From NCBI GenBank assembly GCA_002352465.1, contig DEIN01000012.1, positions 17,484 through 81,483 of the forward strand: a DNA stretch of 64,000 nucleotides. Direction: 5' to 3'. The first letter of the stretch is position 1, and the number at the start of each line of letters is the position of its first letter. The notes beneath the pieces were generated by a model. That model was not told the DNA's origin and did not search any database. It worked only from the letters and a program-made list of their open reading frames with translations. The position numbers were made by a program, and so were the translations under genes. The DNA comes from Patescibacteria group bacterium UBA2773. Lineage in GTDB: Bacteria > Patescibacteriota > Minisyncoccia > Moranbacterales > DUUL01. Below are positions 5,164 to 44,753 of the stretch, piece by piece.

Positions 5164-6366
5164 TTAACCAACAAAAGTCAGGGCAATTCCAGCCTTATCG
5201 GCTCGTCCAGTTCGACCAATTCGATGAACATAATCATCATAAGTCGCTGGGATATCAAAATTAATCACATGACTTACATTTGGAATATCCAAACCTCGAG
5301 CCGCCACATCAGTCGCCACCAAAATATCAATTGAATTTCGTTTAAAATTTTGCAGTACTCTTTGTCTTTTGTTGTGAGGTTTGTTGCCATGAATAGCATC
5401 TGATTTTAAACCTTTTTGTTGTAATTTTTTCGAAAGCTTATCGGCCCCATGCTTAGTTCGAGAAAACACCAATACTTTTTCAAATTGAGTTTGAATAAGA
5501 AGTTTATAAAGAACTTCAATTTTATCTTCGTTCTTAATTCTGATAATATCCTGGTCAATTTGATTAGAAGTTTCTCTAGTTTTTAATGAAATCCGCTCTG
5601 GATTTTTCAAAAAATCTTTCACTAACTTTTCAATCTCTCGAGAAAAAGTAGCCGAGAATAACATTGTTTGTCGTTCTTTTTTTAACAAAGCCAAAAGTTG
5701 CTTGACATCATTGATAAATCCCATATCCAACATTCGATCGGCTTCATCTAAAACAACATTATTGAATTTTGATAAATCAAGAGTTTTCCGAGAAATTAAA
5801 TCCTTTAATCTTCCTGGCGTTCCAATTACCAAGTTATGACGTCTTCGTAATTCTCGAACTTGTCCGTGAATATTAGCTCCGCCGACAACCACCACTGAAT
5901 AAATCCCCATCTTTTGAGCCAAAGCTCTAAATTCTTCTTGAATTTGAATTGCCAATTCCCTAACTGGCACCACAATTAAAACCTTTTCTTGAGGATTATT
6001 CAAAATTTTATTCAACAGTGGAATTAAAAAAGCCGCTGTTTTTCCGGTTCCAGTATTAGCTAATCCAATTACATCTTTTCCAGCTAAAACAACTGGAATA
6101 GCTTTTTCTTGAATTGGAGTTGGGTCAACAAATCCCCGACTTTTAATTGCCTGTTTTAATTTATAATCAATTTCTAAATCGTCAAAAGAATACTGAGGTT
6201 TGAAAACTTCAGCGGGCTTTATTGGTTCAGCTTTATTAATGAAACGATTGACATTAATTGAATCACCCGAAAAACCTCGTTTTCCGCCAAAACGTGAACT
6301 GCCTCTAGCCTTTTTTTTCCAACCATTATTAGCACGTAGTTGTCGCGTTTTTCCATTATTATACAT
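5164..6366 (-). CDS. DEAD-box ATP-dependent RNA helicase with Arg/Gly-rich basic N-terminal extension
   Basis: Q-motif region, Walker A TGTGKTAAF, DEAD box VVLDEADRM, SAT and HRIGRTGRA motifs. Confidence 0.9.
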   Translation of the reverse strand: MYNNGKTRQLRANNGWKKKARGSSRFGGKRGFSGDSINVNRFINKAEPIKPAEVFKPQYSFDDLEIDYKLKQAIKSRGFVDPTPIQEKAIPVVLAGKDVIGLANTGTGKTAAFLIPLLNKILNNPQEKVLIVVPVRELAIQIQEEFRALAQKMGIYSVVVVGGANIHGQVRELRRRHNLVIGTPGRLKDLISRKTLDLSKFNNVVLDEADRMLDMGFINDVKQLLALLKKERQTMLFSATFSREIEKLVKDFLKNPERISLKTRETSNQIDQDIIRIKNEDKIEVLYKLLIQTQFEKVLVFSRTKHGADKLSKKLQQKGLKSDAIHGNKPHNKRQRVLQNFKRNSIDILVATDVAARGLDIPNVSHVINFDIPATYDDYVHRIGRTGRADKAGIALTFVG

Positions 6367-6584
6367 TGTGTATCTAACATAAAAATTAAATTCTTTTTAT
6401 GTTTAGATACTCAATTACACAATCAGAAGTATTAACATAAAAAATAATAATACAATTTTATTTAAGTTTTGTCAAGAGAAGTTCTCTTCTTTTTGCTTTT
6501 TAAAGGCAAATTTTAAAAAATAATCAAGCACCCAAAGACTCAAAAACCTTAGCTAATTTTTAAATCTTTATCAACAAAACAAAA

Positions 6585-6800
6585 TTAAATTTCAATTTTA
6601 AATTTAGTAAATTTTTTAATTTTTCCCGCTACCACCAAAGCCCCAATTCCTCCAATAATTAACAACATTCCTACTAAAATTCCCAGCAAATCAGGATAAA
6701 TAACAATTAAAATTCCGGTCAAAATTGACAAAAATCCTTCCAGTAAAATCATCCAAAAAATATTTTGCATAAACTTAAACACAAATTCAACTTTGCTCAT
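6585..6800 (-). CDS. Small two-TM membrane protein (hypothetical)
   Basis: 71 aa with two hydrophobic helices and GxxxG-like repeats; no recognisable family. Confidence 0.3.
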   Translation of the reverse strand: MSKVEFVFKFMQNIFWMILLEGFLSILTGILIVIYPDLLGILVGMLLIIGGIGALVVAGKIKKFTKFKIEI

Positions 6801-11124: not shown

Positions 11125-13563
11125 CTAACTACTCGCTCTGTTTTTAATTTCGTTCTCTATAATATCTCGATCTCGACCATAAGTATAACGAGAATATTGC
11201 TTGAAAGCCTCTCTTAATTCCGCACTACCCGATTGAGGCGGATAAGTTTTCATATCGAATGGATCAGATGATTCATTGTTAATTAAAAGTTTAGTAAAAC
11301 ACTGAAAGTTATTGATATTAATCAAGTCATTAGCGTCAAATACTGGCGTCAATTGTTTTTGTAAAAAATCAGCATCTTCAGCCCCAACTCTGAAAGCGCT
11401 CATTGAACCAACATTTCCAAAAACCGCCTTGGAAATATCATCAGAAAGCTGCCCAATATATTGATGGGCGATAGTTAAACACAATCGATATTTTCGAGCC
11501 TCCGCCAAAATTTGAGAAATTGAATCCGTGGTAAAATTTTGAAATTCATCAATGTAAAGATAAAAATCGTTCCGCTCATCTTCAGGAATATCAGTTCGAG
11601 ACAAAGCCGCCATCAACAATTTTCCCACAATAATCATCCCCAATAAATGACTATTAATTTCCCCAATTTTCCCTTTGGACAAATTCACCAATAAAATCTT
11701 TTTTTCATCCATTATTTTCCTGAAATCCAAAGTGCTTTCTTGTTGAGCAATAATTGGACGCATCATATCATTGGAAATAAAGCTGGTTAGCTTGGAATTA
11801 ATATAAGGTGAAATATTCTCCAAAGAAGCATCACCCCCGGCTTTTTCCGCTTCTTTTTCCCAAAAATCAACCACCGTTCGATCCTTGCAAAGTTTCAATT
11901 TTTCCTTCCGAAATTCAGCATCTCGAAAAACTCGCGGAATTTCCATTAAAGTCGAACCCGTCTCGGGACTGTCCATAATTAAAAGCAAAGCATTTCGCAT
12001 ATACTGTTCAAACATTGGACCACCAGTTTTGCTTAAATCATAAAGTTTATCAAAAATATTAATGATTTCATTAATCACAAACGTTTTTTGTTCTGGTCGT
12101 TTCTCATCATATTGAAGCATATTAAGACCAAATGGTCGTTCTGTATCCGCTGGATCAAAATAAATCACGTCTTCTGCTCGTTCCTTAGGAATACACTCCA
12201 AAACATGATCAATTAAATCACCGTGCGGATCAACAATACACATTCCCTCCTTGCCAATCGCGTCTTGTTTAGCCATTTCTTCAATAAAACCTGACTTACC
12301 CGTTCCAGTTTGTCCAATAATATAGAGATGTCTTCTTCGAGCATCTCGATCCAACCGAATTTCTGTTTTTGTCCCTCTGAAATCACTGAAACCCAATTTA
12401 AGCCCTTTTTTAGGAATATCAATTGGAGGCGGAGCTGATTTAGAACGCAACCAATTCAACTTTGGTGTTTCAGTCGTAGAAATTGGAAAATGAAAAACAC
12501 TAGCCAATTCTTCCACATCCAAAGTAATCTTTCGAGAAGGCATAAAATATCGAAAAATAAAATTAAAGGCTATTTTTTTGGCGTTTTTGCTCTTATCTCG
12601 AACTGTCACTAACTTATTCAAATTAACATCCTCAAATTGAGTAAAAGAATTTTCCAATTGACTTAAAATTTCTTCCGCACGCTGTTCAGTTTGAGCTGAA
12701 GCCATAAGCCTAATATTAACGTCAAATCTAGTTTTATTAATTTTATTTTCAATTTGTTTAATAACGTCATTCTCTTCTGGTGTCAAACTGACCAGTTCTT
12801 CTTCTTTTTTTTTATTCCCTGTCAAAATTCCACCAACTAAATCACCAAAGACTCCCTTGCTAGCCTCACTCAACCGCTTTCCTTTTTGCATTTCTCGCGT
12901 TATTTTTTCCCCTCGACGTTTAAGCGAACTATCAGTTGATTTTCTAAAAACCACCTGAAAACAGGCTCCCTCTTCAACATTTTCTAATTTAGAAAATGTA
13001 TTAGCAATATTATGTAAAGGATCTGATTCTAAATGTTGATAAGTTTTAATTGGAAAAATATGTTCCTTTTTTAATCGAACAAAACTACCCTTGGTCACTC
13101 CTTCTGGGCGAAAAATTGTATAATCCTCTACTCTTTCAATAAACGCGCTCGGATAAAAACTATGAATTTGTTTTTCCACCAGTTCTTTGATTTGTCTTGG
13201 CATTGAAACATAGAAAGAAATTTGTTCATTGTCTGAGGGAACTCCCATTTCCATTGTTATTTGAGGTGTTCCATAAAAAAAATCCATAATAAAATTTCTT
13301 TTTATCTTGGTTTCAGAAAAAGTCGCTAATAATTGTTCCATTACCGAAATTTCCTCTTTCTCACTCTGCGTTCTTTTCTCAGCATCTAAGTTCTCAGCTT
13401 TTTTCGGTTTTACTACTCGAACAATGTCCAAAGTTGAATTTAAAGATCGACTAATTCGAATTTTAGCTAATAAAAAAGTTTCTAGCATAAACCAACCGGC
13501 GCAAAAAATTGCTATGCCACCAATCAAAATCATTAAAACAAGAATTATGGTCGTTGTTTCCAT
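11125..13563 (-). CDS. Membrane-anchored VirD4/TraD(TrwB)-like P-loop ATPase (putative type IV coupling protein / VirB4-VirD4 superfamily)
   Basis: N-terminal TM helix; Walker A GQTGTGKSG; family motif IVDPHGDL (cf. DPKGE/D in TraG/VirD4/TrwB); Walker B YIDEFQNF; 812 aa. Confidence 0.5.
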   Translation of the reverse strand: METTTIILVLMILIGGIAIFCAGWFMLETFLLAKIRISRSLNSTLDIVRVVKPKKAENLDAEKRTQSEKEEISVMEQLLATFSETKIKRNFIMDFFYGTPQITMEMGVPSDNEQISFYVSMPRQIKELVEKQIHSFYPSAFIERVEDYTIFRPEGVTKGSFVRLKKEHIFPIKTYQHLESDPLHNIANTFSKLENVEEGACFQVVFRKSTDSSLKRRGEKITREMQKGKRLSEASKGVFGDLVGGILTGNKKKEEELVSLTPEENDVIKQIENKINKTRFDVNIRLMASAQTEQRAEEILSQLENSFTQFEDVNLNKLVTVRDKSKNAKKIAFNFIFRYFMPSRKITLDVEELASVFHFPISTTETPKLNWLRSKSAPPPIDIPKKGLKLGFSDFRGTKTEIRLDRDARRRHLYIIGQTGTGKSGFIEEMAKQDAIGKEGMCIVDPHGDLIDHVLECIPKERAEDVIYFDPADTERPFGLNMLQYDEKRPEQKTFVINEIINIFDKLYDLSKTGGPMFEQYMRNALLLIMDSPETGSTLMEIPRVFRDAEFRKEKLKLCKDRTVVDFWEKEAEKAGGDASLENISPYINSKLTSFISNDMMRPIIAQQESTLDFRKIMDEKKILLVNLSKGKIGEINSHLLGMIIVGKLLMAALSRTDIPEDERNDFYLYIDEFQNFTTDSISQILAEARKYRLCLTIAHQYIGQLSDDISKAVFGNVGSMSAFRVGAEDADFLQKQLTPVFDANDLININNFQCFTKLLINNESSDPFDMKTYPPQSGSAELREAFKQYSRYTYGRDRDIIENEIKNRASS

Positions 13564-30182: not shown

Positions 30183-30662
30183 TTAATTTAAAGCTTTTTT
30201 AATTTGTTGCATCTTATTATTAACTACTTCAATTTTTTTATAATAACCCTTTTTCAAAAAATAATAGTGCAGTAAAGCCATTATAGTAAAAAGAGGAAGC
30301 CAGCTAAAGCCAAAGCCAAAAACTTCTACTCCATAAAGAATTAATCTTAAAATCCATATTTTAAGTTGCTTCTTTATTTTATTGCGAAAAAAACCTCGCC
30401 CTAGTCCATCAAAAAAATATAATATTTCAAAAACCGCCGCGAAAAAACTACCTATTAAATTTCCGACAACTAGAATTAATCCAAATAAATCAGCCACAAT
30501 GGATAAAATTACTATAAATCGAGAAAGAATTGTGATTTCAGATTTTTCAACCCTCTTGATTGCCTTTAGTATTCCCGTTTCCTTGATAGTTTTTTTATAC
30601 TCCAATTCCCGCTGTCTTTCCAATTCTTGCTGATTTAAATATTCCTGACTAATTTTAACCAT
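30183..30662 (-). CDS. Small membrane protein (hypothetical, T4SS-like cluster)
   Basis: 159 aa, 3 predicted TM helices. Confidence 0.3.
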   Translation of the reverse strand: MVKISQEYLNQQELERQRELEYKKTIKETGILKAIKRVEKSEITILSRFIVILSIVADLFGLILVVGNLIGSFFAAVFEILYFFDGLGRGFFRNKIKKQLKIWILRLILYGVEVFGFGFSWLPLFTIMALLHYYFLKKGYYKKIEVVNNKMQQIKKALN

Positions 30663-30678
30663 CAGTTTTTTAAAAAAA

Positions 30679-32520
30679 TTAAGCCTCCCTTTTTTCCATT
30701 TTCATTCTTTGTGCTGGATTAGTAGTAATAATTTTATCTTCATTATAAGAAGCAACCACTTGAATAGCTGCTCGCTTATTACCAGCAAAAAATATTCCCT
30801 CTCCCACTTGAGTTTCCATTAGAAAATATTTTTCCTTGTCAGTTAAATAAAACGTATCAGCTACTACATCCACCGAAGATTTCGACTGTTTCATTAATAA
30901 CTGAATCGAGGAATTAGAAACAATCGCTTTTCCATGAGAAGACCCTAAAAAATCTGAAATATCTTGAGTAATAGTAGTCAGTCCTCCGTAATACTTTCTA
31001 ATTCGTTTTGCAATTGAAAATAAAAACTTAGCTCCATCTTCATGTTGCATCATCCACCAAGCTTCATCCACCGTAATTAATCTTTTTTTAACATTAAATC
31101 GAACTTCATTCCAAATATATTTTAAAATCAGATACATTGCAATTGGTCGAAGCTCATCTTCAAGATCCCGAATATTAAAAACAATTAATCGATTTTTCAA
31201 AATAATATTAGAAGGCTGATTTAAAAAACCCTTATAAACTCCTTGGGTATATTTTTCAACTCGCATCGCCAAGTTTTCTCCTCCTTGCATATTTTTTAAA
31301 ATCTCATGAAAATCTGTTAATAAAGGCATATTTTTATTTGGTAGTTCCTCTACTGCCGTTTCCTTGGTAATATCTCGAACTAAATAGGTTTCATGAATTG
31401 CTCGAGCTAAAACTGTGTCTTCTTCTGGAGTAATATTTCCTAACATTAACTTAAACAAACCAATCAAATCCACAGTGTTTGATCTTAAGATTTCCTCCAT
31501 ATTTTCTTCAGCATTAGCTTTTAAAGAAAAAGGATTAATATGATGAGAAGAATTCAAAGAAACTGAAATATAGCTTCCTCCGACTGCTTCAGCTAAATAA
31601 CGATATTCATCTTCTGGATCAATAATAATTGAATCTGTTCCCAGCATCAAAGACCGCAGAATTTCTAATTTTATCGTATAACTTTTTCCAGCTCCCGATT
31701 TAGCAAACACTACTGTATTAGCATTCTCCATCGAAAACCGATCAAATAAAATCAAAGAATTATTATGTTTATTAATTCCATACATAATCCCTTGATTAGA
31801 TGTTACATTAGAAGAAATAAAAGGAAAAGCCGTTGAAAGTGGAGCAGTATTAAGATCTGACCCAATCATCAACTTATCCGAACAAAGCGGAAGGCAAGAA
31901 TCAAACCCTTCTTTCATTCTAAATACGGCTTTTTTAGTAAAGATAGACATTGACTCTAAGGACGATTCTAAAATATCAGTATTTTTTTCTAAAACTTCTA
32001 AATCTTTAGCATAGATATTAACATATAGACCAAATTTAAAAACCTTTTCCACTCCTTCTTGTAGCTTGTCTCTTAATTCCTCCACATTGCGATAAGCCAT
32101 CTCTAATTCCGGACTTCGAACCAAGCCCTTCTCACTCTCAATATTAATTTGAGATTGAATTTGAGCTACTTTTTTCTTTAAAGTTTTCAAAACTTTATTC
32201 GTATTAATCGGATGAATGAAAAAAGCAATATCCATTGGTAAATCCAAAGTAATCATTCGATTAGACCAACCAATTGAAAGTATTCGAGGATAAGCTGAAA
32301 CAAAAATCGTCCGACAATAAACCTCTCCGATTTGCAAATAAGCGCTTGATACTCCAAAAGCAGCCGGCGCAATAAAATCCAAAACTCTCGTTAAGCCTTT
32401 TTGATAAACGTCTTCTTTATTTAGAATATCAATCACGCCATAATCCTGAGTTTTATTTTCTGGTTTTTTTGATATCAATTGTTTTTTCTTTTTTTCTTTT
32501 TTTTGAAATAATTTAAACAT
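30679..32520 (-). CDS. VirB4-like type IV secretion ATPase (Gram-positive TraE/PrgJ/TcpF-like)
   Basis: Walker A VVFAKSGAGKSYT, IIIDPEDEY (cf. VirB4 DPKGEY), Walker B LITVDEAWWMM; the N-terminal region resembles conjugative VirB4 proteins (IAPAAF...YCRTIFVSAYPR). Confidence 0.65.
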   Translation of the reverse strand: MFKLFQKKEKKKKQLISKKPENKTQDYGVIDILNKEDVYQKGLTRVLDFIAPAAFGVSSAYLQIGEVYCRTIFVSAYPRILSIGWSNRMITLDLPMDIAFFIHPINTNKVLKTLKKKVAQIQSQINIESEKGLVRSPELEMAYRNVEELRDKLQEGVEKVFKFGLYVNIYAKDLEVLEKNTDILESSLESMSIFTKKAVFRMKEGFDSCLPLCSDKLMIGSDLNTAPLSTAFPFISSNVTSNQGIMYGINKHNNSLILFDRFSMENANTVVFAKSGAGKSYTIKLEILRSLMLGTDSIIIDPEDEYRYLAEAVGGSYISVSLNSSHHINPFSLKANAEENMEEILRSNTVDLIGLFKLMLGNITPEEDTVLARAIHETYLVRDITKETAVEELPNKNMPLLTDFHEILKNMQGGENLAMRVEKYTQGVYKGFLNQPSNIILKNRLIVFNIRDLEDELRPIAMYLILKYIWNEVRFNVKKRLITVDEAWWMMQHEDGAKFLFSIAKRIRKYYGGLTTITQDISDFLGSSHGKAIVSNSSIQLLMKQSKSSVDVVADTFYLTDKEKYFLMETQVGEGIFFAGNKRAAIQVVASYNEDKIITTNPAQRMKMEKREA

Positions 32521-32537
32521 TTAAATTAATTATTTTA

Positions 32538-33197
32538 TTACTTTTCAAGATCAATTGACGAAATATTTTCTAAATTAACATATTCGAATTCAGATGGATT
32601 ATAGGAGTTATAATAAAGTTCGATTAATTCTTCAGTTTTAAGCATTATTCCATTCAAACCCATACCAGACAATGAAGAAGCCACTCTATCCACCCGTTGA
32701 AATAATTGACTCTTGTAAGTCTCAAAACTTTCATTATTTTGATATAAAACCTTTTTTTTATTGGCTACTGAAAATATTTTTTTAAAAACTCCTTGATTTT
32801 TAACTTCTATCATATAAAAGGGGATAACAATATAAAACATTTTAGACATCACATTTGACAAACCAATTAATTCCTCAATAAAATCTACATAATCTTTGAT
32901 TTGATTTTTCAACAAAATATTTTCTTCTAATCGAATCTTCTTTTTTAGTTGATCAACATAAGGATTAATATTAAACCGTCGAGAAGAAACCACAATTTGA
33001 AAACTAAAATCAAAAGTTGTTAAAAACTGTTGAAAATTGTAAATAATTGCTTGCTGTTCCTCTTCTGATTTCAAATCCATATTAATTGCTGTAGTCGCTA
33101 AAACCGCCCTCAAAGAACCGTCTTTCATTACGACTACGTCTTCTTTGATTTCAGCAATCTCCATTTTTTCTTGTAGTGAATTTTCACTCCCATTCAT
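32538..33197 (-). CDS. Hypothetical protein immediately upstream of the VirB4-like gene (possible separately encoded VirB4 N-terminal-like domain)
   Basis: 219 aa; VVMKDGSLRAVLATTAINMDLKSEEEQ...FDFSFQIV pattern is reminiscent of the VirB4/TrbE N-domain; 17-bp gap to the ATPase ORF. Confidence 0.3.
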   Translation of the reverse strand: MNGSENSLQEKMEIAEIKEDVVVMKDGSLRAVLATTAINMDLKSEEEQQAIIYNFQQFLTTFDFSFQIVVSSRRFNINPYVDQLKKKIRLEENILLKNQIKDYVDFIEELIGLSNVMSKMFYIVIPFYMIEVKNQGVFKKIFSVANKKKVLYQNNESFETYKSQLFQRVDRVASSLSGMGLNGIMLKTEELIELYYNSYNPSEFEYVNLENISSIDLEK

Positions 33198-33218
33198 AAT
33201 TTTATTTTTATTTATTGA

Positions 33219-33623
33219 CTATTCATAAATATCTAGAGATTGAATCGCCTTTTTAATCTCATTTGGATTAATTTTCTTTTTATTTTTTTTAACAATAATT
33301 TTTGGTTTTTTATCATCTTCTTCTAAAGGATTATTTTGATAACCTTTGCGCCAAATATAAATTTTGGGCTTAAAAGTGAAAAGAAAAGCGTTTTTGATAA
33401 AAACTGGCAAAGTCTGACCATAAGGTTTAACAAAAAGCACCGCCACTATAAAAATCGAAACAATTACCAGTATAATAATAAAATAAGTTTTTTCAAATAA
33501 AACCCAGGCAATAAAACTAAAAAAGCAACCCAAAGCAACCCAACCTAATTGCTTAGCAGTTAATTGAAACGCTATTTTATCTTCAATCCCAATAAATTGA
33601 GGTACTTCTCTTTGTCGACTCAT
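33219..33623 (-). CDS. Small two-TM membrane protein (candidate VirB3/PrgI-like)
   Basis: 134 aa; a hydrophobic hairpin near the N-terminus; position and size typical of VirB3/PrgI genes; no sequence motif to confirm. Confidence 0.3.
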   Translation of the reverse strand: MSRQREVPQFIGIEDKIAFQLTAKQLGWVALGCFFSFIAWVLFEKTYFIIILVIVSIFIVAVLFVKPYGQTLPVFIKNAFLFTFKPKIYIWRKGYQNNPLEEDDKKPKIIVKKNKKKINPNEIKKAIQSLDIYE

Positions 33624-33625
33624 TT

Positions 33626-34525
33626 TTAAATATAATTATTTAAATCTAAAACATTACTTCTTTTATCTTCCCTTTCATTTTCCTTTTTTTTGAAATTATT
33701 TTTTTTTACCGCCTTAATTTTAAAAGCTGACTTACTATCAACATCATGATAGGGCTTACTTTCAAATTTAGTAATATTAAAATTAGCTTTTGGTTTTTTG
33801 TTCTTTTCTAATAATTTTATTATTTCAAAATCAATTTGCTCAAACAACTTATTATAATAAGTAATTGCATTCCCCTCAAAAGCTTTTAAAATTATTGATA
33901 ACTCCTCTTTTTCTTCTGGATTTAATTGTTGAGCGTTTTTACTATTATACAAGTAATCACTGACATTTAAAATAGTGTTTTTCTGTTGGTCAGTTTTTCT
34001 TAAGCGATAATCAATAATCCAATTTTCAATCCAAGGTGCCTTACCTTCATTTTCTTTAGGAAAAAAAATTAATTGAACTCCAATTTCTTGTTGCCTAATT
34101 TCCGGAAATTTTTCTAAAAGTTCTTTAAAGTTCAAAACCACTAAATCTTCTTTAACTGCTTTAATTCCAATTTTTTTTATGGCTTCAATTAATTGTTTGA
34201 ATTCCACCAAAAAATCAATCGAAACAGTATTACTCAATTGAAATCTTTGGAAAATTTCTTTCTTCAATTGGTCTTCGCTCAGTTCCCCAGCCATAAAATT
34301 CCGAGTCAAAATCGCCACTCCCCCAATTTTCTCTGGAGAACTTAACTGATTTTTTTCCGCCAAAGTTTTTATTAAATTTTCCGTTTTTGTGCTAATCAAA
34401 CCATACCGAACATTCCGCGGTAATTTCTTTTTTTGCTTTTCCCAACGCTCTCGACTGTCTTCTTTTTTTAACAAGTCAACTGCCAAAGTCGGGTTAGCTT
34501 GATTAATTATTTTTAGCTCCTCCAT
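33626..34525 (-). CDS. Cytoplasmic hypothetical protein (T4SS-like cluster)
   Basis: 299 aa, no TM helix. Confidence 0.35.
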   Translation of the reverse strand: MEELKIINQANPTLAVDLLKKEDSRERWEKQKKKLPRNVRYGLISTKTENLIKTLAEKNQLSSPEKIGGVAILTRNFMAGELSEDQLKKEIFQRFQLSNTVSIDFLVEFKQLIEAIKKIGIKAVKEDLVVLNFKELLEKFPEIRQQEIGVQLIFFPKENEGKAPWIENWIIDYRLRKTDQQKNTILNVSDYLYNSKNAQQLNPEEKEELSIILKAFEGNAITYYNKLFEQIDFEIIKLLEKNKKPKANFNITKFESKPYHDVDSKSAFKIKAVKKNNFKKKENEREDKRSNVLDLNNYI

Positions 34526-34549
34526 TTTTTTATTATATCATCTTATAAT

Positions 34550-36637
34550 CTAAATAAATCCAGTTTTTTTCTTTTGTGCTTTAGGGGTTGTTTTTTGATT
34601 TAAATTAGTTGTATCTTTTTGACTTGCTAAAAAACCAGCCTTTATTTTTTTAGATTCAGGCGTTGTTTTTGAATCACTATTATTTTCGTCTTCTCCTAAT
34701 AAAAATTTACCCTTTCCTGTTTTTTCTGCTATTAAAAAATCACGCGCTTCGATATTTTTAATATTTTCAGCAAATTTTCTTCTTTCATTGATTTTTGTAT
34801 TTTGATTTTTTTCAAACAAATACTCTACCACACCAGGTTGTTCATAAAAACTTTTATTTTGATTTTTGATAATTGAACCAAGATTACCTTGAATATTTTT
34901 ATTGAAAATTTCTTTATCAACTCCTGCCATAGCACTAGCTTTATGATATTCCTTGCTTCCTCTTTTTAACCCATCAAAAGAATTATTCCCTTCTTTTATT
35001 TTTTCTTGAATTTTTTGATGTTTTTTATAATCAATAAAAGCCCCTAAATTTTCTCTTTTAGTTTCCCTAGTAATTTGTTCTTGAGCTGCTTTATCATCTT
35101 TTAGGTTCTCCATCGCTTTTTCATATTGATTATTTCCGCTAGCATCAACTCCTAATTTATTATTTTGAGATTTATACAAAGTTGCCGCCAAGTCTCCTTT
35201 TTCAAATAATTTATCCATCTCAACATCTGTAATTGGATCATCTTTCCATTTTTTAAGTTTCTCCTGAGCCTTACCTCTTTCATAACTTCTAGTTGCTGCA
35301 CCACCATCTCTTCCATATTTCTTTTTAGCATTAGCCACTCTTTGAGCTTGAAGATCGTCTCTTCCACTTTTAGTCAATCTTTTTGTTACAAAACTCCCTT
35401 TACCGTCATAATTTTTCACTCCGTGTTTAATTCCTTCTTTTACTGCCTCTCTTTGTTTTTTAAAAGTAGCAACAGAAGCAGCCCCATATCCAAACTTCTT
35501 AGCTGCTCTTCCAGTTTTATTTCCCCAAGCGCTAATTTTAGCACTCCCCGCTCCCAAAATCTTAGTAGCCATATCACTAGAAGTTTTTTTGGCTTGATCA
35601 TAACCATAAAATAATAAATAAATAACCGTAATATAAGGAATAAGCATTGAAAAAAGCTTAACCGCAAAACTTGACAATGCTCCCGAACCGGCTTTTATTT
35701 GTTCTGGGTTCATTGAAGAAAAAGGATCTATTCCCGCCTTCGTTGCTCCCACTAAAGCATCTAATAAAATTATCGCCAACCAGAAAAAAAACAACAAAAT
35801 CGGACCATAAAAACACCAACTCATTAAATTTTTTACCCAATCATCCTTCATTGAACCCAATTTAGTCCCCTCCATTGCAAAACCAAACATTGCCAAGGGT
35901 GATAAAATTATTAAAACCCAAAAAGAAATCATTCTAACAATCAAGCTAATCGCCAAATAAAACAACATTATTGCCATTATTATAGTCATTAAAATCACCA
36001 CTATAAGAATCACAAAATAAGCAAATTTATCACCAAGATTTCCGGGTGAAAGAATGTCATCAAAACTAATTAAATTTTGAAGTTGAGCCGTAAACGCCAT
36101 TTGTTGAATGGCATTAGCAAAAAAATGCATAAAAACTTGAGAAATATCAATCACAAATAAGGTCAAAGGTTTAGAGAAATTTATCAACATCGCCGCTATT
36201 ATCACTCTCATTAAGACCGTCTTGTCTTTAAATTTAGAAACCCCTAAAATTGTACTCAATCCCACTAAAACAATTATTAAAATAAAAAATAAATTAAAAA
36301 AATCCCGCACAAATGACCAAGCAGTGTTAATTCCCTCTTTAGCTACGGGTGAAAAAAAAACACCCGAAAACATCTCTGGTGAAATCATCGTATCCAACAA
36401 CCACATAGAACCTGCTAGTAACATTAAAGCTAACTTAAAAAATCCATATAAAATAGCATTAACCCCGGTTAATAAAGTATTACTAAAAAAACCACCTTCA
36501 CCACTACCACTTTTAAGTGTTTCTACAACATCACTTTGCGCTAAACAAAAATCACCAACTAAAAAACACCCTAAAAAAATTACTCCTAGGGAAAACAACC
36601 ATTTTTTGTTAATGTTTTTCTTTTTAAAAGCTACCAT
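34550..36637 (-). CDS. Polytopic membrane protein with signal peptide and long basic C-terminal tail (VirB6/TrbL-like)
   Basis: 695 aa; N-terminal signal, about 6-7 TM helices in the first 350 aa, then a Lys-rich disordered tail. Confidence 0.4.
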   Translation of the reverse strand: MVAFKKKNINKKWLFSLGVIFLGCFLVGDFCLAQSDVVETLKSGSGEGGFFSNTLLTGVNAILYGFFKLALMLLAGSMWLLDTMISPEMFSGVFFSPVAKEGINTAWSFVRDFFNLFFILIIVLVGLSTILGVSKFKDKTVLMRVIIAAMLINFSKPLTLFVIDISQVFMHFFANAIQQMAFTAQLQNLISFDDILSPGNLGDKFAYFVILIVVILMTIIMAIMLFYLAISLIVRMISFWVLIILSPLAMFGFAMEGTKLGSMKDDWVKNLMSWCFYGPILLFFFWLAIILLDALVGATKAGIDPFSSMNPEQIKAGSGALSSFAVKLFSMLIPYITVIYLLFYGYDQAKKTSSDMATKILGAGSAKISAWGNKTGRAAKKFGYGAASVATFKKQREAVKEGIKHGVKNYDGKGSFVTKRLTKSGRDDLQAQRVANAKKKYGRDGGAATRSYERGKAQEKLKKWKDDPITDVEMDKLFEKGDLAATLYKSQNNKLGVDASGNNQYEKAMENLKDDKAAQEQITRETKRENLGAFIDYKKHQKIQEKIKEGNNSFDGLKRGSKEYHKASAMAGVDKEIFNKNIQGNLGSIIKNQNKSFYEQPGVVEYLFEKNQNTKINERRKFAENIKNIEARDFLIAEKTGKGKFLLGEDENNSDSKTTPESKKIKAGFLASQKDTTNLNQKTTPKAQKKKTGFI

Positions 36638-38781: not shown

Positions 38782-40410
38782 TTATAAAAAAATAACTTTA
38801 ATTATCCACAAGCTATAAATAAAAACTAACCCTAAAACCCAACTATTTATTTTTTTTTCACCAATTTTATCACCACTAACAATAATAAAGTTCAAAATAC
38901 CAAAAAATAAAGCACTTAGAAACAACTCTTGTTCGTGTAAAATATAAACTGATAATAAATAAAAACTAAACAAAAAACTCGCAATAATTAAACGAGTTTT
39001 TTTCCTACCAACCAGAACTACTAAGTTATAAATCTTGTCCTTTTGATCACCTTCTAAATCTTTTAAATCCTTAAGTGGAATTATAAAAAAATAAGCAAAA
39101 AATAAAAACCAGTAAATTTTCCAAGGAAAAAATTCAAGAGTTTCGCTTCCAGAAAAAACAATAAAACCCATCACCAAAAACAATAAAGAAGAAAAAGCAA
39201 TTAAAATGTTAGATATAATTAAAATTCGTTTAAATCTAAAAGGCGAACAAGAATAAAACCAAGTAAGACAATAATACAAAGAGACAAAAACCACAAACAA
39301 AGGTTTAATTAAAAAGGCTCCAACAATCGAGAACAAAGCAATAATTATATTTATTTTTTTATATTCCTTGATTGTTATTTTTTTTGTAATTAAGGGTCGA
39401 GAAGAATTAGAAATTTTATCCACAACCAAATCACTAATATCATTAACCAAAACAGAAGAAACCCAACTACAAAAAACTACTATACATAAAACTAAAACAC
39501 TAGAAATATTAAAAAAATTAAACTGAAAATTTTCATTGTAATTCAAAAAACCTAAAGCTAAACCCAAAAAAAGCAAACCCAAGTTAAAAAAAACTTGAGG
39601 TAAACGAACATTTCTTATTAAGACTATGTATTTTTTTTTATTTTTTAAAAAATATATAAGATTAATATTAACAAAAATCATCAAATAATAGATAATAGAC
39701 ATTTTTTTAGCTAAAAAAGTCTCTATTTCATTGTTATTTATTCCAAAAATAGAAAGGGGTGACATAAAATAACCAACAACAGTTGTTTTAGAAACATTTA
39801 AAATATTACCATTTTTAATAAATTCTAATCCAAAGGTTATTAAACTAGGAAGACTATTGAGAATAAAAAAAATAAAATAAACCAAAAAAGCAAATCCCAC
39901 TGTTTTTAAGATTTTTCTCTTTTTTTGAAAATAATAACAAGATAATAAAAAAACACTCAAAAAAACAAGCACTCGTCCACCAATCGTAATTCCCCAATTT
40001 AAACTATCTCCATAAAACAAAAAAAACCTCTCAATTAATCCTTTAGCACTATCAAAAAGATAAAAATTTTTATATATTCCCTCTTTAAATATTATTTTAT
40101 CAATAATTGGTGGTAATAAAATCAACCAAACACCGTAAAACAAAAAGTTTTTAGATTTATTAAATTCTTTTTTTATTAAAAACATTAGAAATATTAAAAA
40201 TACTGAATAGACAAACATTACTAATAAAAAATCGTTTACAAAAAAAACCAAATAAATAAAACCTTCTTTAATTGGAATATTATCTAAAAATATTTCAATA
40301 AAAAATCTTAACAAAACTATTCCAAAGAAACCAAAAAGCCAGGTGTTAAAATTATTTTTTTGATTTTCAATAATTGTAATAATATTTTTTATATTCAATT
40401 TTACTTGCAT
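38782..40410 (-). CDS. UbiA-superfamily prenyltransferase domain fused to a roughly 260-aa N-terminal polytopic membrane domain
   Basis: First Asp-rich motif NDISDLVVD (NDxxDxxxD) followed by SRPL; second motif DLKDLEGD (DxxDxxxD) about 120 aa later; about 7 additional N-terminal TM helices. Confidence 0.6.
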   Translation of the reverse strand: MQVKLNIKNIITIIENQKNNFNTWLFGFFGIVLLRFFIEIFLDNIPIKEGFIYLVFFVNDFLLVMFVYSVFLIFLMFLIKKEFNKSKNFLFYGVWLILLPPIIDKIIFKEGIYKNFYLFDSAKGLIERFFLFYGDSLNWGITIGGRVLVFLSVFLLSCYYFQKKRKILKTVGFAFLVYFIFFILNSLPSLITFGLEFIKNGNILNVSKTTVVGYFMSPLSIFGINNNEIETFLAKKMSIIYYLMIFVNINLIYFLKNKKKYIVLIRNVRLPQVFFNLGLLFLGLALGFLNYNENFQFNFFNISSVLVLCIVVFCSWVSSVLVNDISDLVVDKISNSSRPLITKKITIKEYKKINIIIALFSIVGAFLIKPLFVVFVSLYYCLTWFYSCSPFRFKRILIISNILIAFSSLLFLVMGFIVFSGSETLEFFPWKIYWFLFFAYFFIIPLKDLKDLEGDQKDKIYNLVVLVGRKKTRLIIASFLFSFYLLSVYILHEQELFLSALFFGILNFIIVSGDKIGEKKINSWVLGLVFIYSLWIIKVIFL

Positions 40411-40697
40411 TAGATTATGATTATATTTTTTATTAAAACCTCGTTTAAATTTTTATTTATTTTTTTAATAATCATTTTTTCATTAAGCTTAAATTCATTC
40501 CGCCAAGTCGAGTTTTTTAATTCAATCCATAACCTTCCTTTTTTATAGTCTTTGACTTCAGTAAATTTTTTACTAAGTTCACCAAATAATTCTTGTAAAA
40601 CCATTTCACTAGTTGAAATAATTAAATATTTATCATTTTTAATAATCTTTTTATTATTAACTCTTTTTTCTAAAACTTTTTGAAAATCTTCCCACAT
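40410..40697 (-). CDS. DUF721-like small protein (DciA-like helicase-loader candidate) downstream of dnaN
   Basis: 95 aa; conserved position after dnaN; C-terminal RLWIELKNSTWRNEFKL pattern resembles DUF721. Confidence 0.4.
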   Translation of the reverse strand: MWEDFQKVLEKRVNNKKIIKNDKYLIISTSEMVLQELFGELSKKFTEVKDYKKGRLWIELKNSTWRNEFKLNEKMIIKKINKNLNEVLIKNIIII

Positions 40698-40700
40698 TTT

Positions 40701-41843
40701 CTAATTTTTAATAATTGGCATAATAATATAAGAAAATTTAAAATCTTCTTTTTCGTTTTCATCTAAACCTTTCATTAGAGCTGGTGACTTCTCTTTGTTT
40801 AATTTTAAAATAACCCATTCTTCTTTAATTACACTTAAACCATCAATTAAATAATTACAATTAAACAAAATCTCAAAATCATCACCTAAAATATTAGCGG
40901 CTATTTTAGAGATATTTTCCCCTGCTTCATTGGAATAAGAACTTATTTCTAATTCTTTTTTATTTTTAAGATTACTAATTTTTATTTCACTATTGTTATC
41001 TCGAGAAACTAAGGATGCTATTTTTAGAGCATTTATCAACTCATTTCTATTTATTTTAACTTCAATAGAGTATTTTTTAGGTAAAATTTGTTGATAATCA
41101 ATATAATTTCCATTAATTAATTTTGAAATAATCTTAGTCGAATTATTTCCTACGAATAATTGATTTTGTTTTATTATTAAGCTTATTTCACCTTCAGTAA
41201 GATTTTTTTGAATTTCACTAAAGGTTAAGGCAGGAATTATAATCGAAGGAGTATTTTCTATAAAAATAAAATATTCCTCAGTTAAATTGTTTTTATTCAA
41301 ACTTATAACTACCTCACTTAATCGATAACCATCAGTTGAAGCCAAGATTAACCTGTCTTTTTTAAAAAGAACATTCACTCCGTTTAATTCTTGTCTAGTA
41401 TCATTTCGAGCTACGGAAATTAAAATATTAGAAATATTCTCAATTAAATCTTTAGAATTTATTTTAATATAACTATCCTCGGGATTTTCTGGAATTATTG
41501 GATAATCATCTAAACTCATTCCTTTAATTTTAATTTGATGTTTTTCGGTTTTTACTTGAAATTCATCTTTAATTACAAATCCTTCAATAATATCATCTTT
41601 AATATTATTTAAAAATCCGCTAACAACTCTAATCGGAATTGTAATTCCTCCTTCTTTGTTTATTTTAGCCTTAACAAAAGTTTTTACTGCTATTTCAAGA
41701 TTTGTTGAAGCAATTACTAATCTATTTTTATCAGTTTTAATTAATATATTACTTAAAATTGGTAAACTTGGGTTTTTTAAAAGAACCCTTTCAATTTTAG
41801 ATATTGCATTTCTAAAATTATCTCGCTTAATTGAAAATTGCAT
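40701..41843 (-). CDS. dnaN: DNA polymerase III beta sliding clamp
   Basis: MQFSIKRDNF N-terminus, 380 aa, three-domain clamp organisation, directly downstream of dnaA. Confidence 0.9.
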   Translation of the reverse strand: MQFSIKRDNFRNAISKIERVLLKNPSLPILSNILIKTDKNRLVIASTNLEIAVKTFVKAKINKEGGITIPIRVVSGFLNNIKDDIIEGFVIKDEFQVKTEKHQIKIKGMSLDDYPIIPENPEDSYIKINSKDLIENISNILISVARNDTRQELNGVNVLFKKDRLILASTDGYRLSEVVISLNKNNLTEEYFIFIENTPSIIIPALTFSEIQKNLTEGEISLIIKQNQLFVGNNSTKIISKLINGNYIDYQQILPKKYSIEVKINRNELINALKIASLVSRDNNSEIKISNLKNKKELEISSYSNEAGENISKIAANILGDDFEILFNCNYLIDGLSVIKEEWVILKLNKEKSPALMKGLDENEKEDFKFSYIIMPIIKN

Positions 41844-42060: not shown

Positions 42061-43464
42061 TTAATAGTCATTGTATTTTTCCCGAATAAATTTAATTTGA
42101 TCTTGTAAAAATTTATTATCCCCCAATTCTTTAATAATTTTTTTATGAGCATACATCACCGTTGAATGATTTTTACCACCCAAAAATATTCCAATTTCCG
42201 TAAAAGAAAGAGTTAAATCCTCTCTTAATAAATAAAAAGTTAATTGACGAGGCTTAATTACTGTTTTTTTTCGGCAAGAACCTAGAATTTCAGTGGTTTT
42301 TATATTAAAAAAATCTGCTACTGCCTTAACAATGGTTGTAGCCGTCACTTTACTTTGTCTATTACTGGAAATTAAATCCTCGGTTAATTCCATAACATCT
42401 TTTAATGTGGGAAAAACATTGCGAAGTTGATATGTGACAATTATTTTATTCAAAGCTCCTTCTAGTTCTCGAACATTGTGATAAATATTTTTTGCTAAAT
42501 ATTCAATAATTTCTTCGCTGAGATCGAAATTTTTTTCTATTACCTTTTTTTTAATAATAGCCAACCTAGTTTCTAAATCGGGTTTGCTAATATCAGCCAT
42601 CATTCCTCCTTCAAATCTTGATTTAAGTCGATTTTCTAGGGTTGGAATTGATTTTGGCGGACGGTCAGCACTAATAATAATCTGTTTATTTAATTGATAT
42701 AAAGATTCAAAAACATGAAAAAATTCTTCCTGAGTCTTCTCTTTCTTAGATAAAAACTGAACATCATCAATTATTAACATATCTAATTGAATATATTCAT
42801 TTTTAAACTCTTTAGCTTTGGAGTTTTGAATAGCCCCAATTAATTCATTAGCAAATCGTTCCATACTTACATAACGAATTTTAAAATCAGGATTTTGGGC
42901 TTTAATAAAATTTCCAGTAGCTTGAATTAGATGAGTTTTACCCAAACCAACATCTCCATAAATAAATAAAGGATTATAAGATTGTCCTGGCTTTTTGGAA
43001 ACTGACTGACAAGCAGCGTAAGCCAATTCATTATTAGCACCGATTACGTAGGTTTCGAATTTGTAACGAGGGTTTAATCCCGAACTAATATGGTTAGAGT
43101 TGCGGTTAAAAGAAGGAGTTTCTCGAAGACTTTTTTTGATGCTTTTTTTGAGTTTTTCTTTTAATTTTGATTTAACAATGACTGAATCCATTGATTTTTG
43201 AGGAAAAGAGGTTTTGTTCTGAACCTCTAAAGAACAAATTACCCGATTGATTTTGGGGAAATGTTTTCGAATGGAGTCTAATATTGTTTTTTGATATTTT
43301 TTTTCTAACCACTCTTTAGCAAAAATATTAGGGACAATTATTATTAGAGTATCCTCGGTTAAATCTTTTATAGAGGTGTTTTTGAACCAGGTAGTAAAAC
43401 TGGCTTTTGACAAAGAAAGTTCCACTTCTCCTAAAATAGCCTCCCAGAGTTCCTGTTTGTTCAT
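42061..43464 (-). CDS. dnaA: Chromosomal replication initiator DnaA
   Basis: AAA+ Walker A GDVGLGKTHL, Walker B LIIDDVQF, sensor motifs, and C-terminal DnaA-box-binding HTH (TFTEIGIFLGGKNHSTVMYA). Confidence 0.95.
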   Translation of the reverse strand: MNKQELWEAILGEVELSLSKASFTTWFKNTSIKDLTEDTLIIIVPNIFAKEWLEKKYQKTILDSIRKHFPKINRVICSLEVQNKTSFPQKSMDSVIVKSKLKEKLKKSIKKSLRETPSFNRNSNHISSGLNPRYKFETYVIGANNELAYAACQSVSKKPGQSYNPLFIYGDVGLGKTHLIQATGNFIKAQNPDFKIRYVSMERFANELIGAIQNSKAKEFKNEYIQLDMLIIDDVQFLSKKEKTQEEFFHVFESLYQLNKQIIISADRPPKSIPTLENRLKSRFEGGMMADISKPDLETRLAIIKKKVIEKNFDLSEEIIEYLAKNIYHNVRELEGALNKIIVTYQLRNVFPTLKDVMELTEDLISSNRQSKVTATTIVKAVADFFNIKTTEILGSCRKKTVIKPRQLTFYLLREDLTLSFTEIGIFLGGKNHSTVMYAHKKIIKELGDNKFLQDQIKFIREKYNDY

Positions 43465-43481
43465 TCTTTTTGTTTATAAAT

Positions 43482-43490
43482 TGTTGATAA
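43482..43490. promoter_or_regulatory. DnaA box-like 9-mer TGTTGATAA (8/9 to TGTGGATAA) just upstream of dnaA
   Basis: Seen in sequence. Confidence 0.45.
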
Positions 43491-43547
43491 CCCAGGTTAC
43501 CTTTTGAATAATACCTAATAAAAGGCAAGTTCTCAATGTTTATATAT

Positions 43548-43556
43548 TGTGGATAA
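43548..43556. promoter_or_regulatory. Consensus DnaA box TGTGGATAA (reverse complement of TTATCCACA)
   Basis: Perfect 9/9 match about 85 bp upstream of the dnaA start. Confidence 0.6.
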
Positions 43557-43801
43557 ACTGTTTAAAAATGTTATATTAGCATTACATTAATAGGGAAATA
43601 AGGCAAATTTTTAAAAAATAAAAGGTTTTAATTTAAAATAAAAAACAAATATTTCTCTTTACATAAATAATAATATGTGTTATAATGTTTAAATTAATTT
43701 AAGATTGTTTTTTGGCGGTTGATTTTCTTTTTTAAATTAGTTGAATTATTGGTTTTAAAAATAAACCAAATTAGTTTTTAATATAAAAAGAGTTAATTTA
43801 A

Positions 43802-44650
43802 TGTTTCACGTGAAACAAAATATTTTTTAAATTTAATTTTTAGATTATTATTGATATGTTTCACGTGAAACATAGTAGTCGTTATAAAAATTAAGTCTTT
43901 TATTATTAACGACTTATTTTTAATCGCCTAAGACACTATTTTTAGAACTTTTTATTTTTTAAAAAGATTTATTAATTAAATGTTTCACGTGAAACATTTT
44001 TAAAAAATAGAAACTAATTAATAAAACGTTTATTTCGACTGTTTTTATTCAAAAAAGCTTCAAATAAAAACCCTCAGCGAAATAATTTATTAATGTTTCA
44101 CGTGAAACATTTAATTAGAAAGAAAAAGTTTTATTTACTAAAAGCTTTTTTAAACAAGACCTGCTTAGTCTTAGTTTTTTGAATTTTAAAGAAAGTAAAA
44201 TGTTTCACGTGAAACATTTAGTAAAAAAAACTTTTTACTTAAGGATTTTTTAAACGAAGTTCGGTTTAATTTAATAGCCTTTTTGTTTTTTTGAAAACAA
44301 AAAATTATTTAGTGAGTTAAAATATATGTTTCACGTGAAACATATTAATAATAATTTAGGCGTTAGAATGTTAAAGATTTTTTGTTTCACGTGAAACATC
44401 TTCTTAAAATAAAAAGCAATAAAAAAGAGAAGATGCTTTTATTTTTTATTAAGAGAATAAGGATTTTACGGGTTTTAAGAAAAGTTTTTTAATGTTTCAC
44501 GTGAAACGTTTTTTGTTATTAAAATTAAATTGTTAGAATTTTATTTAAAATTCAAGCCTTAAGGATTGAGATTATTTTCTTTTAAATAAAAAAATTAACT
44601 GAACTTTTTGATTTTAAGAAAATTTATTAGAAGATGTTTCACGTGAAACA
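43802..44650. repeat. parS: Array of nine parS-type centromere palindromes TGTTTCACGTGAAACA in the dnaA-upstream (oriC) intergenic region
   Basis: Copies start at about 43802, 43857, 43981, 44094, 44201, 44327, 44383, 44493 (variant ending ...AACG) and 44635; 8 perfect and 1 single-mismatch; spacing 55-142 bp with unique flanks; matches the chromosomal parS consensus TGTTNCACGTGAAACA. Confidence 0.75.
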
Positions 44651-44753
44651 TTCCAAGGAAAATAGTTGAGCTTGTCCTCTTTACAAAAAGGCTATAACAT
44701 TGTATAATAAATTGACTTTAATTTAAAACTATGTTAAAAATTCCCATAGAGAT

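Follow-up and report, generated by a model that had tools for sequence, protein, structure and literature searches.

The window (the whole stretch of DNA analysed, 64,000 nucleotides) carries nine closely set parS palindromes in the intergenic region upstream of dnaA. This region is 1,289 bp long and is bordered by dnaA/dnaN/dciA on one side and by the genes of tRNA-Ala, tRNA-Arg and the CCA-adding enzyme on the other; the parS array occupies most of it. Outward from the dnaA start codon, the DnaA box at 43482 is followed by a promoter-like site, the DnaA box at 43548, an A+T block, the nine parS sites and the promoter-like site of tRNA-Ala. The coordinates are as follows.

40410..40697, minus strand: dciA, 95 aa (PF05258)
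40701..41843, minus strand: dnaN, 380 aa
41844..42060, no strand: dnaA-dnaN spacer, A+T-rich, with five DnaA-box-like words at two mismatches
42061..43464, minus strand: dnaA, 467 aa (Pfam DnaA_N, Bac_DnaA, Bac_DnaA_C)
43482..43490, minus strand: DnaA box with one mismatch, TGTTGATAA (minus strand TTATCAACA), 26 nt upstream of the dnaA start
43508..43536, minus strand: sigma-70-like promoter facing dnaA, between both DnaA boxes, a consensus match only
43548..43556, minus strand: perfect DnaA box, TGTGGATAA (minus strand TTATCCACA), 92 nt upstream of the dnaA start
43561..43801, no strand: 241-bp block of 84.6% A+T reaching from the DnaA boxes to the first parS site
43802..44650, no strand: parS array, nine 16-bp palindromes with unique spacers of 83% A+T
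43802..43817, no strand: parS copy 1, exact, the nearest to dnaA, 338 bp from its start codon
44493..44508, no strand: parS copy 8, the sole variant, TGTTTCACGTGAAACG, with terminal A changed to G
44635..44650, no strand: parS copy 9, exact, at the far end from dnaA, with 104 bp between it and tRNA-Ala
44680..44708: promoter-like site of tRNA-Ala, conserved in the relative L164
44754..44827, plus strand: tRNA-Ala(GGC), at the outer edge of the intergenic region, conserved in L164
44885..44957, plus strand: tRNA-Arg(CCT)

A search of the 64-kb window with up to two mismatches returned nine matches to TGTTTCACGTGAAACA, eight of them exact and one with a terminal mismatch, starting at 43802, 43857, 43981, 44094, 44201, 44327, 44383, 44493 and 44635. 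The start-to-start spacings are 55, 124, 113, 107, 126, 56, 110 and 142 bp. The terminal-G variant seen in copy 8 is also present in L164. The number of matches expected by chance is 0.02, and nine or more were obtained in none of 100 dinucleotide-preserving shuffles. Across the 64 kb the half-sites GTTTCAC and GTGAAAC are confined to the nine parS places, and neither the rest of the window nor some 20 kb of additional flanking DNA yielded a further copy with up to two mismatches. Most copies read aTGTTTCACGTGAAACAt, beyond which the flanks are unrelated A+T-rich DNA; outside the 16-mer, repeat families are only 65–84% alike, in DNA of 83% A+T. Tandem Repeats Finder gave no repeat unit in the array, and there is no sign of recent duplication within it. 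Neither an ORF of at least 60 aa nor a called gene lies inside the array, and Rfam families are likewise absent from it, with only the two tRNAs matched nearby. The locus was found on six independently assembled contigs, the longest of 287,550 bp, and is therefore not an assembly artefact.

TGTTTCACGTGAAACA, a 16-bp inverted repeat, matches the chromosomal parS consensus TGTTNCACGTGAAACA, and PMC10197239 quotes exactly this sequence as the consensus of chromosomal parS. The initial annotation had reported nine palindromes at 43802–44650 (eight exact, one with a terminal mismatch), with unique flanks and a spacing of 55–142 bp, and had taken the motif for chromosomal parS; the search, the missing repeat unit and the exact consensus match bear out all of this. 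It was also right that the palindromes are neither CRISPR repeats nor copies of a mobile element. These two candidates, together with a tandem satellite, were rejected in view of the irregular 55–142 bp spacing, the lack of a unit, the unique flanks and the lack of an Rfam match. A cluster of DnaA boxes or oriC iterons was discarded as well: the palindrome has no similarity to the 9-mer TTATCCACA, and the real DnaA boxes lie separately at 43482 and 43548, as had been claimed. A structured RNA was dismissed, since Rfam gives tRNAs only. The palindrome bound by Noc (NBS) is ATTTCCCGGGAAAT. The core of the array sites is CACGTG, not CCCGGG, and they were accordingly not assigned to this class.

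The minimum of the cumulative G-C curve, calculated per base, falls at 42957, within dnaA, and the genes to the left of the origin lie overwhelmingly on the minus strand. The dnaA context and the position of the minimum identify the locus as the chromosomal replication origin and place it to within 1–2 kb. The parS sites lie 338–1186 bp upstream of dnaA and are thus origin-proximal; the earlier placement of the array immediately upstream of dnaA at oriC agrees with this intergenic position. Only two DnaA boxes are recognisable, so that the accompanying expression "directly on the origin" holds with a precision of no better than 1–2 kb. The A+T block at 43561..43801 is a candidate DNA-unwinding region, and the dnaA-dnaN spacer may represent an alternative or second part of oriC. 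The DnaA box at 43482 belongs to a block conserved with L164. A 27-nt direct repeat (43464–43490 and 43530–43556, 81% identity, 66 bp apart) was also observed, each copy of which ends in a DnaA box; the promoter-like site facing dnaA is situated between the two copies.

The surrounding genes are of the housekeeping type (IleRS, PNPase, rpsB, tsf, SecA, FtsW). The window also contains type IV secretion-like genes (PrgI, TraC-like, VirB4-like and a TraG-like ATPase) at 11125–13563 and 30183–36637. This set is syntenic across the clade, a few kb from dnaA-dnaN-dciA-UbiA, and in L247–L250 it lies downstream of dnaA. The cluster is of a type typical of Patescibacteria. Among DnaA relatives that bear a name, the nearest are labelled Candidatus Moranbacteria, and the placement in the order Moranbacterales follows these names given by submitters.

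The dnaA loci of relatives were gathered by a metagenome scan and exact-protein look-ups. A parS array of 4–22 sites was found just upstream of dnaA in all nine sampled genomes (9/9, the window included) whose DnaA is 60–100% identical to that of the window, so that the conservation at oriC for which a comparison had been proposed holds throughout this sample.

Window: DnaA 100% identical, 9 parS sites
L164: DnaA 85% identical, 12 parS sites
L165: DnaA 80% identical, 15 parS sites
L248: DnaA 75% identical, 17 parS sites
L247: DnaA 64% identical, 4 parS sites
L166: DnaA 63% identical, 7 parS sites
L249: DnaA 62% identical, 22 parS sites
L057: DnaA 60.6% identical, 7 parS sites
L250: DnaA 60% identical, 6 parS sites

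Synteny of the gene order CCA enzyme ... array, dnaA, dnaN, dciA, UbiA ... PrgI, TraC, VirB4 extends to genomes with a DnaA identity as low as 60%. L165 and L249 have arrays that start about 1.1 kb away from dnaA. Among 77 more distant Patescibacteria dnaA loci (L167–L243, DnaA 43–52% identical), none contains a 12–16-nt palindrome repeated three times or more, which makes the array a feature of the window's clade. Two of these 77 loci, L233 and L234, lack an array and have one parS pair only, about 2.7 kb upstream of dnaA. The locus L057 (CAYMRZ010000041.1, 34% G+C), labelled uncultured Bdellovibrionales, shows the same array-dnaA-dnaN layout. It is probably a Patescibacteria contig that was mis-binned or mislabelled in that MAG.

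A MAFFT alignment of the window with L164, the closest relative, gave 90% identity in parS columns vs. 41% in spacers, figures that are partly circular because the aligner anchors on the identical 16-mers. A quarter of the spacer positions face gaps, and indels are many. Identity is 77% on the tRNA side and 69% in the block next to dnaA, as in ordinary conserved non-coding DNA. Independently of any alignment, many exact copies of the palindrome are kept in every genome, whereas the rest of the interval is not preserved. Judged from these comparisons, the array is maintained by selection across the clade while its copy number (4–22) and its spacers change.

Two members of the clade are informative about how such arrays change. 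In L250 (8243–8559; GCA_018648465.1, JABGRC010000004.1) all six sites read TGTTCCACGTGGAACA, i.e., they differ from those of the other clade members by a symmetric T5C/A12G switch in both half-sites. Such a change is expected for a dimeric reader of a palindrome, and it suggests that the whole array and its reader changed together. L249 (6072–8885; ENA ERZ25039514, contig_47163) has 22 sites spread over 2.8 kb. Its spacer types recur, in units starting at 6795/7192/7677/8349, 6924/8476, 7067/8619, 7319/7803 and 7542/8214, which points to growth of this array via duplication of multi-unit blocks. The most repeated spacer of L249 holds a near-DnaA box, TTATCCAGA, and the word TGTGTTCCGGGATATA.

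Across the nine clade arrays the spacings are bimodal, with values of about 50–63 and about 100–130 bp and a minimum of 33 bp. As a cause of the 55/115-bp bimodality, decayed sites midway along the long spacers were considered and rejected, the best matches there being no better than in shuffles. Helical phasing at 10.5 bp is not convincing, with Rayleigh p values, uncorrected for the 33 periods tried, of 0.11 for 88 clade spacings and 0.03 for 565 genome-wide ones.

No ParA or ParB was detected in the 64-kb window, where 110 diverse ParA/ParB queries gave a best tblastn E of 0.08; the initial annotation had likewise noted the absence of both genes from it. None was found in the 10 kb beyond either window end (84 kb covered in all) or, in the clade members, at a distance of up to 10 kb from dnaA, and the typical arrangement with parAB near parS is not encountered over either range. 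A tblastn comparison of 110 ParA/ParB ORFs with the window and the Patescibacteria and viral loci returned only one unrelated match on a viral contig. L049 was rejected as a Patescibacteria ParB seed, its contig having a hybrid histidine kinase of the proteobacteria type. According to a 2025 parB survey of 64,060 bacterial genomes, 77% of chromosomal parB genes sit in parAB operons (PMC12704722). The same survey records chromosomal parB in 81 of 84 species of Moranbacterales (96%), 62 of 63 of Magasanikbacterales, 187 of 193 of Saccharimonadales and 26 of 135 (19%) of Paceibacterales (PMC12704722, Dataset S1). Because parB is present in 81 of the 84 Moranbacterales species, a ParB is very likely encoded elsewhere in this genome.

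Dense parS arrays turned out not to be limited to this clade. Species-representative genomes, one for each species, were scanned for three parS cores at distances of 85–115 bp. This gave at least 119 loci with three or more parS sites about 100 bp apart, which belong to at least nine phyla (Actinomycetota, Bacillota, Pseudomonadota, Bdellovibrionota, Spirochaetota, Chloroflexota, Acidobacteriota, Planctomycetota and Patescibacteria); the scan selects for a spacing of about 100 bp, and its figures are lower bounds, not frequencies. Patescibacteria contribute eight loci among the matches listed. In the best 850 bp of each of the at least 119 loci listed, the median is 6 sites and the maximum 17, with 14 loci having nine or more. 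Among the matches listed (L045–L163), mostly located beside parAB, rsmG or mnmG, L133 has the highest number, 18 sites in 860 bp, and L093 has 12 in 460 bp. Clustering of ORFs showed that the commonest neighbours of the arrays are ParB and ParA (51 loci each; either one at 55 of the at least 119 loci listed), which ties dense arrays to ParABS. The next commonest are RsmG, GyrA, HolB, YbaB, RecR, Jag and MnmG, i.e., the classic origin-proximal neighbourhood. The dense arrays of Patescibacteria are detached from parAB.

In this light, the earlier description of the array as unusual for its density is overstated, given the 22 parS sites in 3 kb of Myxococcus xanthus and the at least 119 dense loci listed. 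The comparatively rare feature is the position beside dnaA rather than the density of the array: dnaA occurs within the 8-kb block at 9 of the at least 119 loci listed. In the literature searched, to which the main parS survey (Livny et al. 2007) did not belong, parS arrays in Patescibacteria are undescribed, as are dense parS arrays as a general class.

Some further observations concern arrays outside the clade. In IMG/VR, 43 viral-classed contigs (L002–L044) have parS pairs 30–60 bp apart, among them L033 (30% G+C), with eight parS sites in about 300 bp at 6137–6460; a recognisable ParB was seen on L009 only. In two Parcubacteria genomes an 11-site parS array is directly adjoined by a 304-aa ORF (L141, 2018–2932; L162, 2898–3812). 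The two ORFs are 60% identical and have no Pfam match. They were tried as DNA-binding partners of the arrays and rejected, as they encode a secreted Ser/Thr-rich protein.

The sites of the window are canonical, origin-adjacent, confined to this locus within 84 kb and selected across the clade. Taken together, the data make it highly probable that the array is the chromosomal centromere, situated on the origin and acting as a multi-site platform for the loading of ParB-CTP. At each of the nine canonical parS sites, ParB dimers would be loaded as through a gate. If the ParABS systems studied are a guide, ParB would bind the palindrome, close to a CTP-bound sliding clamp and leave, with the next dimer taking its place. 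According to single-molecule work, the clamp-loading rate rises with the number of parS sites, and condensation becomes more force-resistant (PMC8299390). Nine gates in 850 bp would be expected to multiply the loading rate and to produce a dense ParB partition complex. Because no more than about 250 bp separate the DnaA boxes from the first site, this complex would sit over oriC, the dnaA promoter, dnaA-dnaN and both tRNA genes. We infer that the cognate ParB binds these sites and that its clamps spread over oriC. The complex would then mark newly replicated origins and segregate them via ParA and/or SMC, if the genome encodes these.

A bolder version of this model can be put forward only tentatively, and we consider it doubtful. 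In this clade the centromere may have moved onto the origin and become uncoupled from parAB, with complex assembly and initiation mechanically coupled. Clamps released from 4–22 gates would inevitably extend over the DnaA boxes, the unwinding region and the promoter of dnaA; ParB occupancy might then gate or time initiation, or replace missing origin-organising factors, and the fast turnover of copy number, including block duplications like those of L249, might tune the coupling. If true, this would mean that segregation and initiation are linked in a minimal-genome, episymbiotic bacterium.

It is unlikely that the ParB-bound array serves mainly for the control of replication initiation or dnaA expression and not for segregation. 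According to this proposal, ParB spreading from sites 250–340 bp away would cover the DnaA boxes, the A+T block and the dnaA promoter, and would throttle or time initiation. Repression of parS-adjacent promoters by ParB complexes is indeed possible in P. aeruginosa (review PMC7022226), and the array of the window is unusually near the DnaA boxes and the dnaA promoter-like site. Its position upstream of dnaA is kept in the clade, and only 9 of the at least 119 dense arrays listed share dnaA as a neighbour in the 8-kb block. However, a tight contact with the promoter is not conserved, as the distance of about 1.1 kb in L165 and L249 demonstrates. Moreover, one site is enough for local repression, so that 4–22 sites fit a loading platform better.

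Much less probable still is the view that the palindromes are read by a protein other than ParB, e.g., a lineage-specific origin-binding factor, after loss of parB. Bacteria of different phyla use this same 16-mer as their ParB site, and such arrays adjoin parAB at 55 of the at least 119 loci listed. That ParB was not found in the 84 kb or near the dnaA of relatives, and that some orders of Patescibacteria are largely devoid of parB (Paceibacterales, 19%), would agree with a different reader; the 96% of Moranbacterales species with chromosomal parB speak against it, as does the lack of a parS array at distant Patescibacteria dnaA loci, which makes the array a clade feature. The PrgI, TraC-like and VirB4-like genes downstream of dnaA-dnaN-dciA, and the fact that plasmid centromeres are often arrays, might point to a centromere remnant from an integrated plasmid or conjugative element. 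This notion can practically be dismissed, because the arrangement is syntenic to 60% DnaA identity and hence vertically inherited, the neighbours are housekeeping genes, the GC-skew switch marks a chromosomal origin, and no plasmid partition or replication genes adjoin the array.

The array is a confident marker of both centromere and origin in an uncultured, ultra-small bacterium, and it predicts canonical ParB-parS segregation in this Candidatus Moranbacteria organism. In a broader context, very dense parS arrays, with up to 17–18 sites per kb, are common across bacterial phyla. The textbook picture of parS, drawn from a few model species, is one of sparse, scattered sites. The contrast between dense and sparse sites bears on current models that derive the flux of ParB clamps and the stability of the partition complex from the number of parS gates. 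The clade offers a natural series for testing such clamp models, with 4 to 22 gates, one symmetric switch of the motif and growth by block duplication.

Comparison with known systems shows both common and distinct traits. P. aeruginosa (parS1-4), C. crescentus, C. glutamicum, B. subtilis and S. pneumoniae share with the window the same motif, the bias to the origin and the presence of several sites. B. subtilis has 10 parS sites (PMC7022226), and those of L. reuteri are located at -180, -17 and +206 kb (PMC10197239). A single parS suffices in model bacteria, and extra sites are thought to give robustness (PMC7022226; PMC4368675). The sites of model bacteria are distributed over kb to hundreds of kb and are often genic, whereas here nine sites are packed into 0.85 kb of intergenic DNA.

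The centromere sopC of the F plasmid consists of 12 tandem 43-bp repeats. Like the array of the window, it provides many close sites for a ParB-family protein, leading to one compact partition complex. Yet sopC is a true tandem repeat, in which the whole unit is conserved and the reader is a plasmid-type ParB (SopB), whereas in the window conservation is restricted to the 16-mer, each spacer is unique and the motif is of the chromosomal type. Shared traits are also seen with the dense arrays L045–L163, which have at least three and up to 17–18 canonical parS sites in less than 1 kb, placed in non-coding gaps with origin-proximal genes nearby. They differ from the window in that 55 of the at least 119 listed adjoin parAB, and in that dnaA is found in the 8-kb block at 9 of them.

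M. xanthus possesses 22–24 parS sites in a cluster of about 3 kb, situated about 4 kb upstream of parA (Iniesta 2014, PMC3899335). Its ParB was shown to bind both the whole parS cluster and a single site in EMSA (PMC3899335). As in the window, the cluster is a dense set of canonical 16-bp parS sites with non-repetitive spacers, chromosomal and near the origin; the average spacing is about 139 bp in M. xanthus, 104 bp here and about 127 bp in L249. The M. xanthus consensus core TGTTCCACGTGGAAC corresponds to the variant of the relative L250. In the 9.14-Mb genome of M. xanthus, the cluster is roughly 30 kb from dnaA. Unlike it, the array of the window abuts dnaA/oriC, and no parAB is encountered for at least 50 kb in one direction and 28 kb in the other. 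In general, the array is a new case of the multi-parS chromosomal centromere, which is best documented in M. xanthus, and it is distinguished by its contact with dnaA/oriC, its separation from parAB and the rapid turnover of copy number in the clade.
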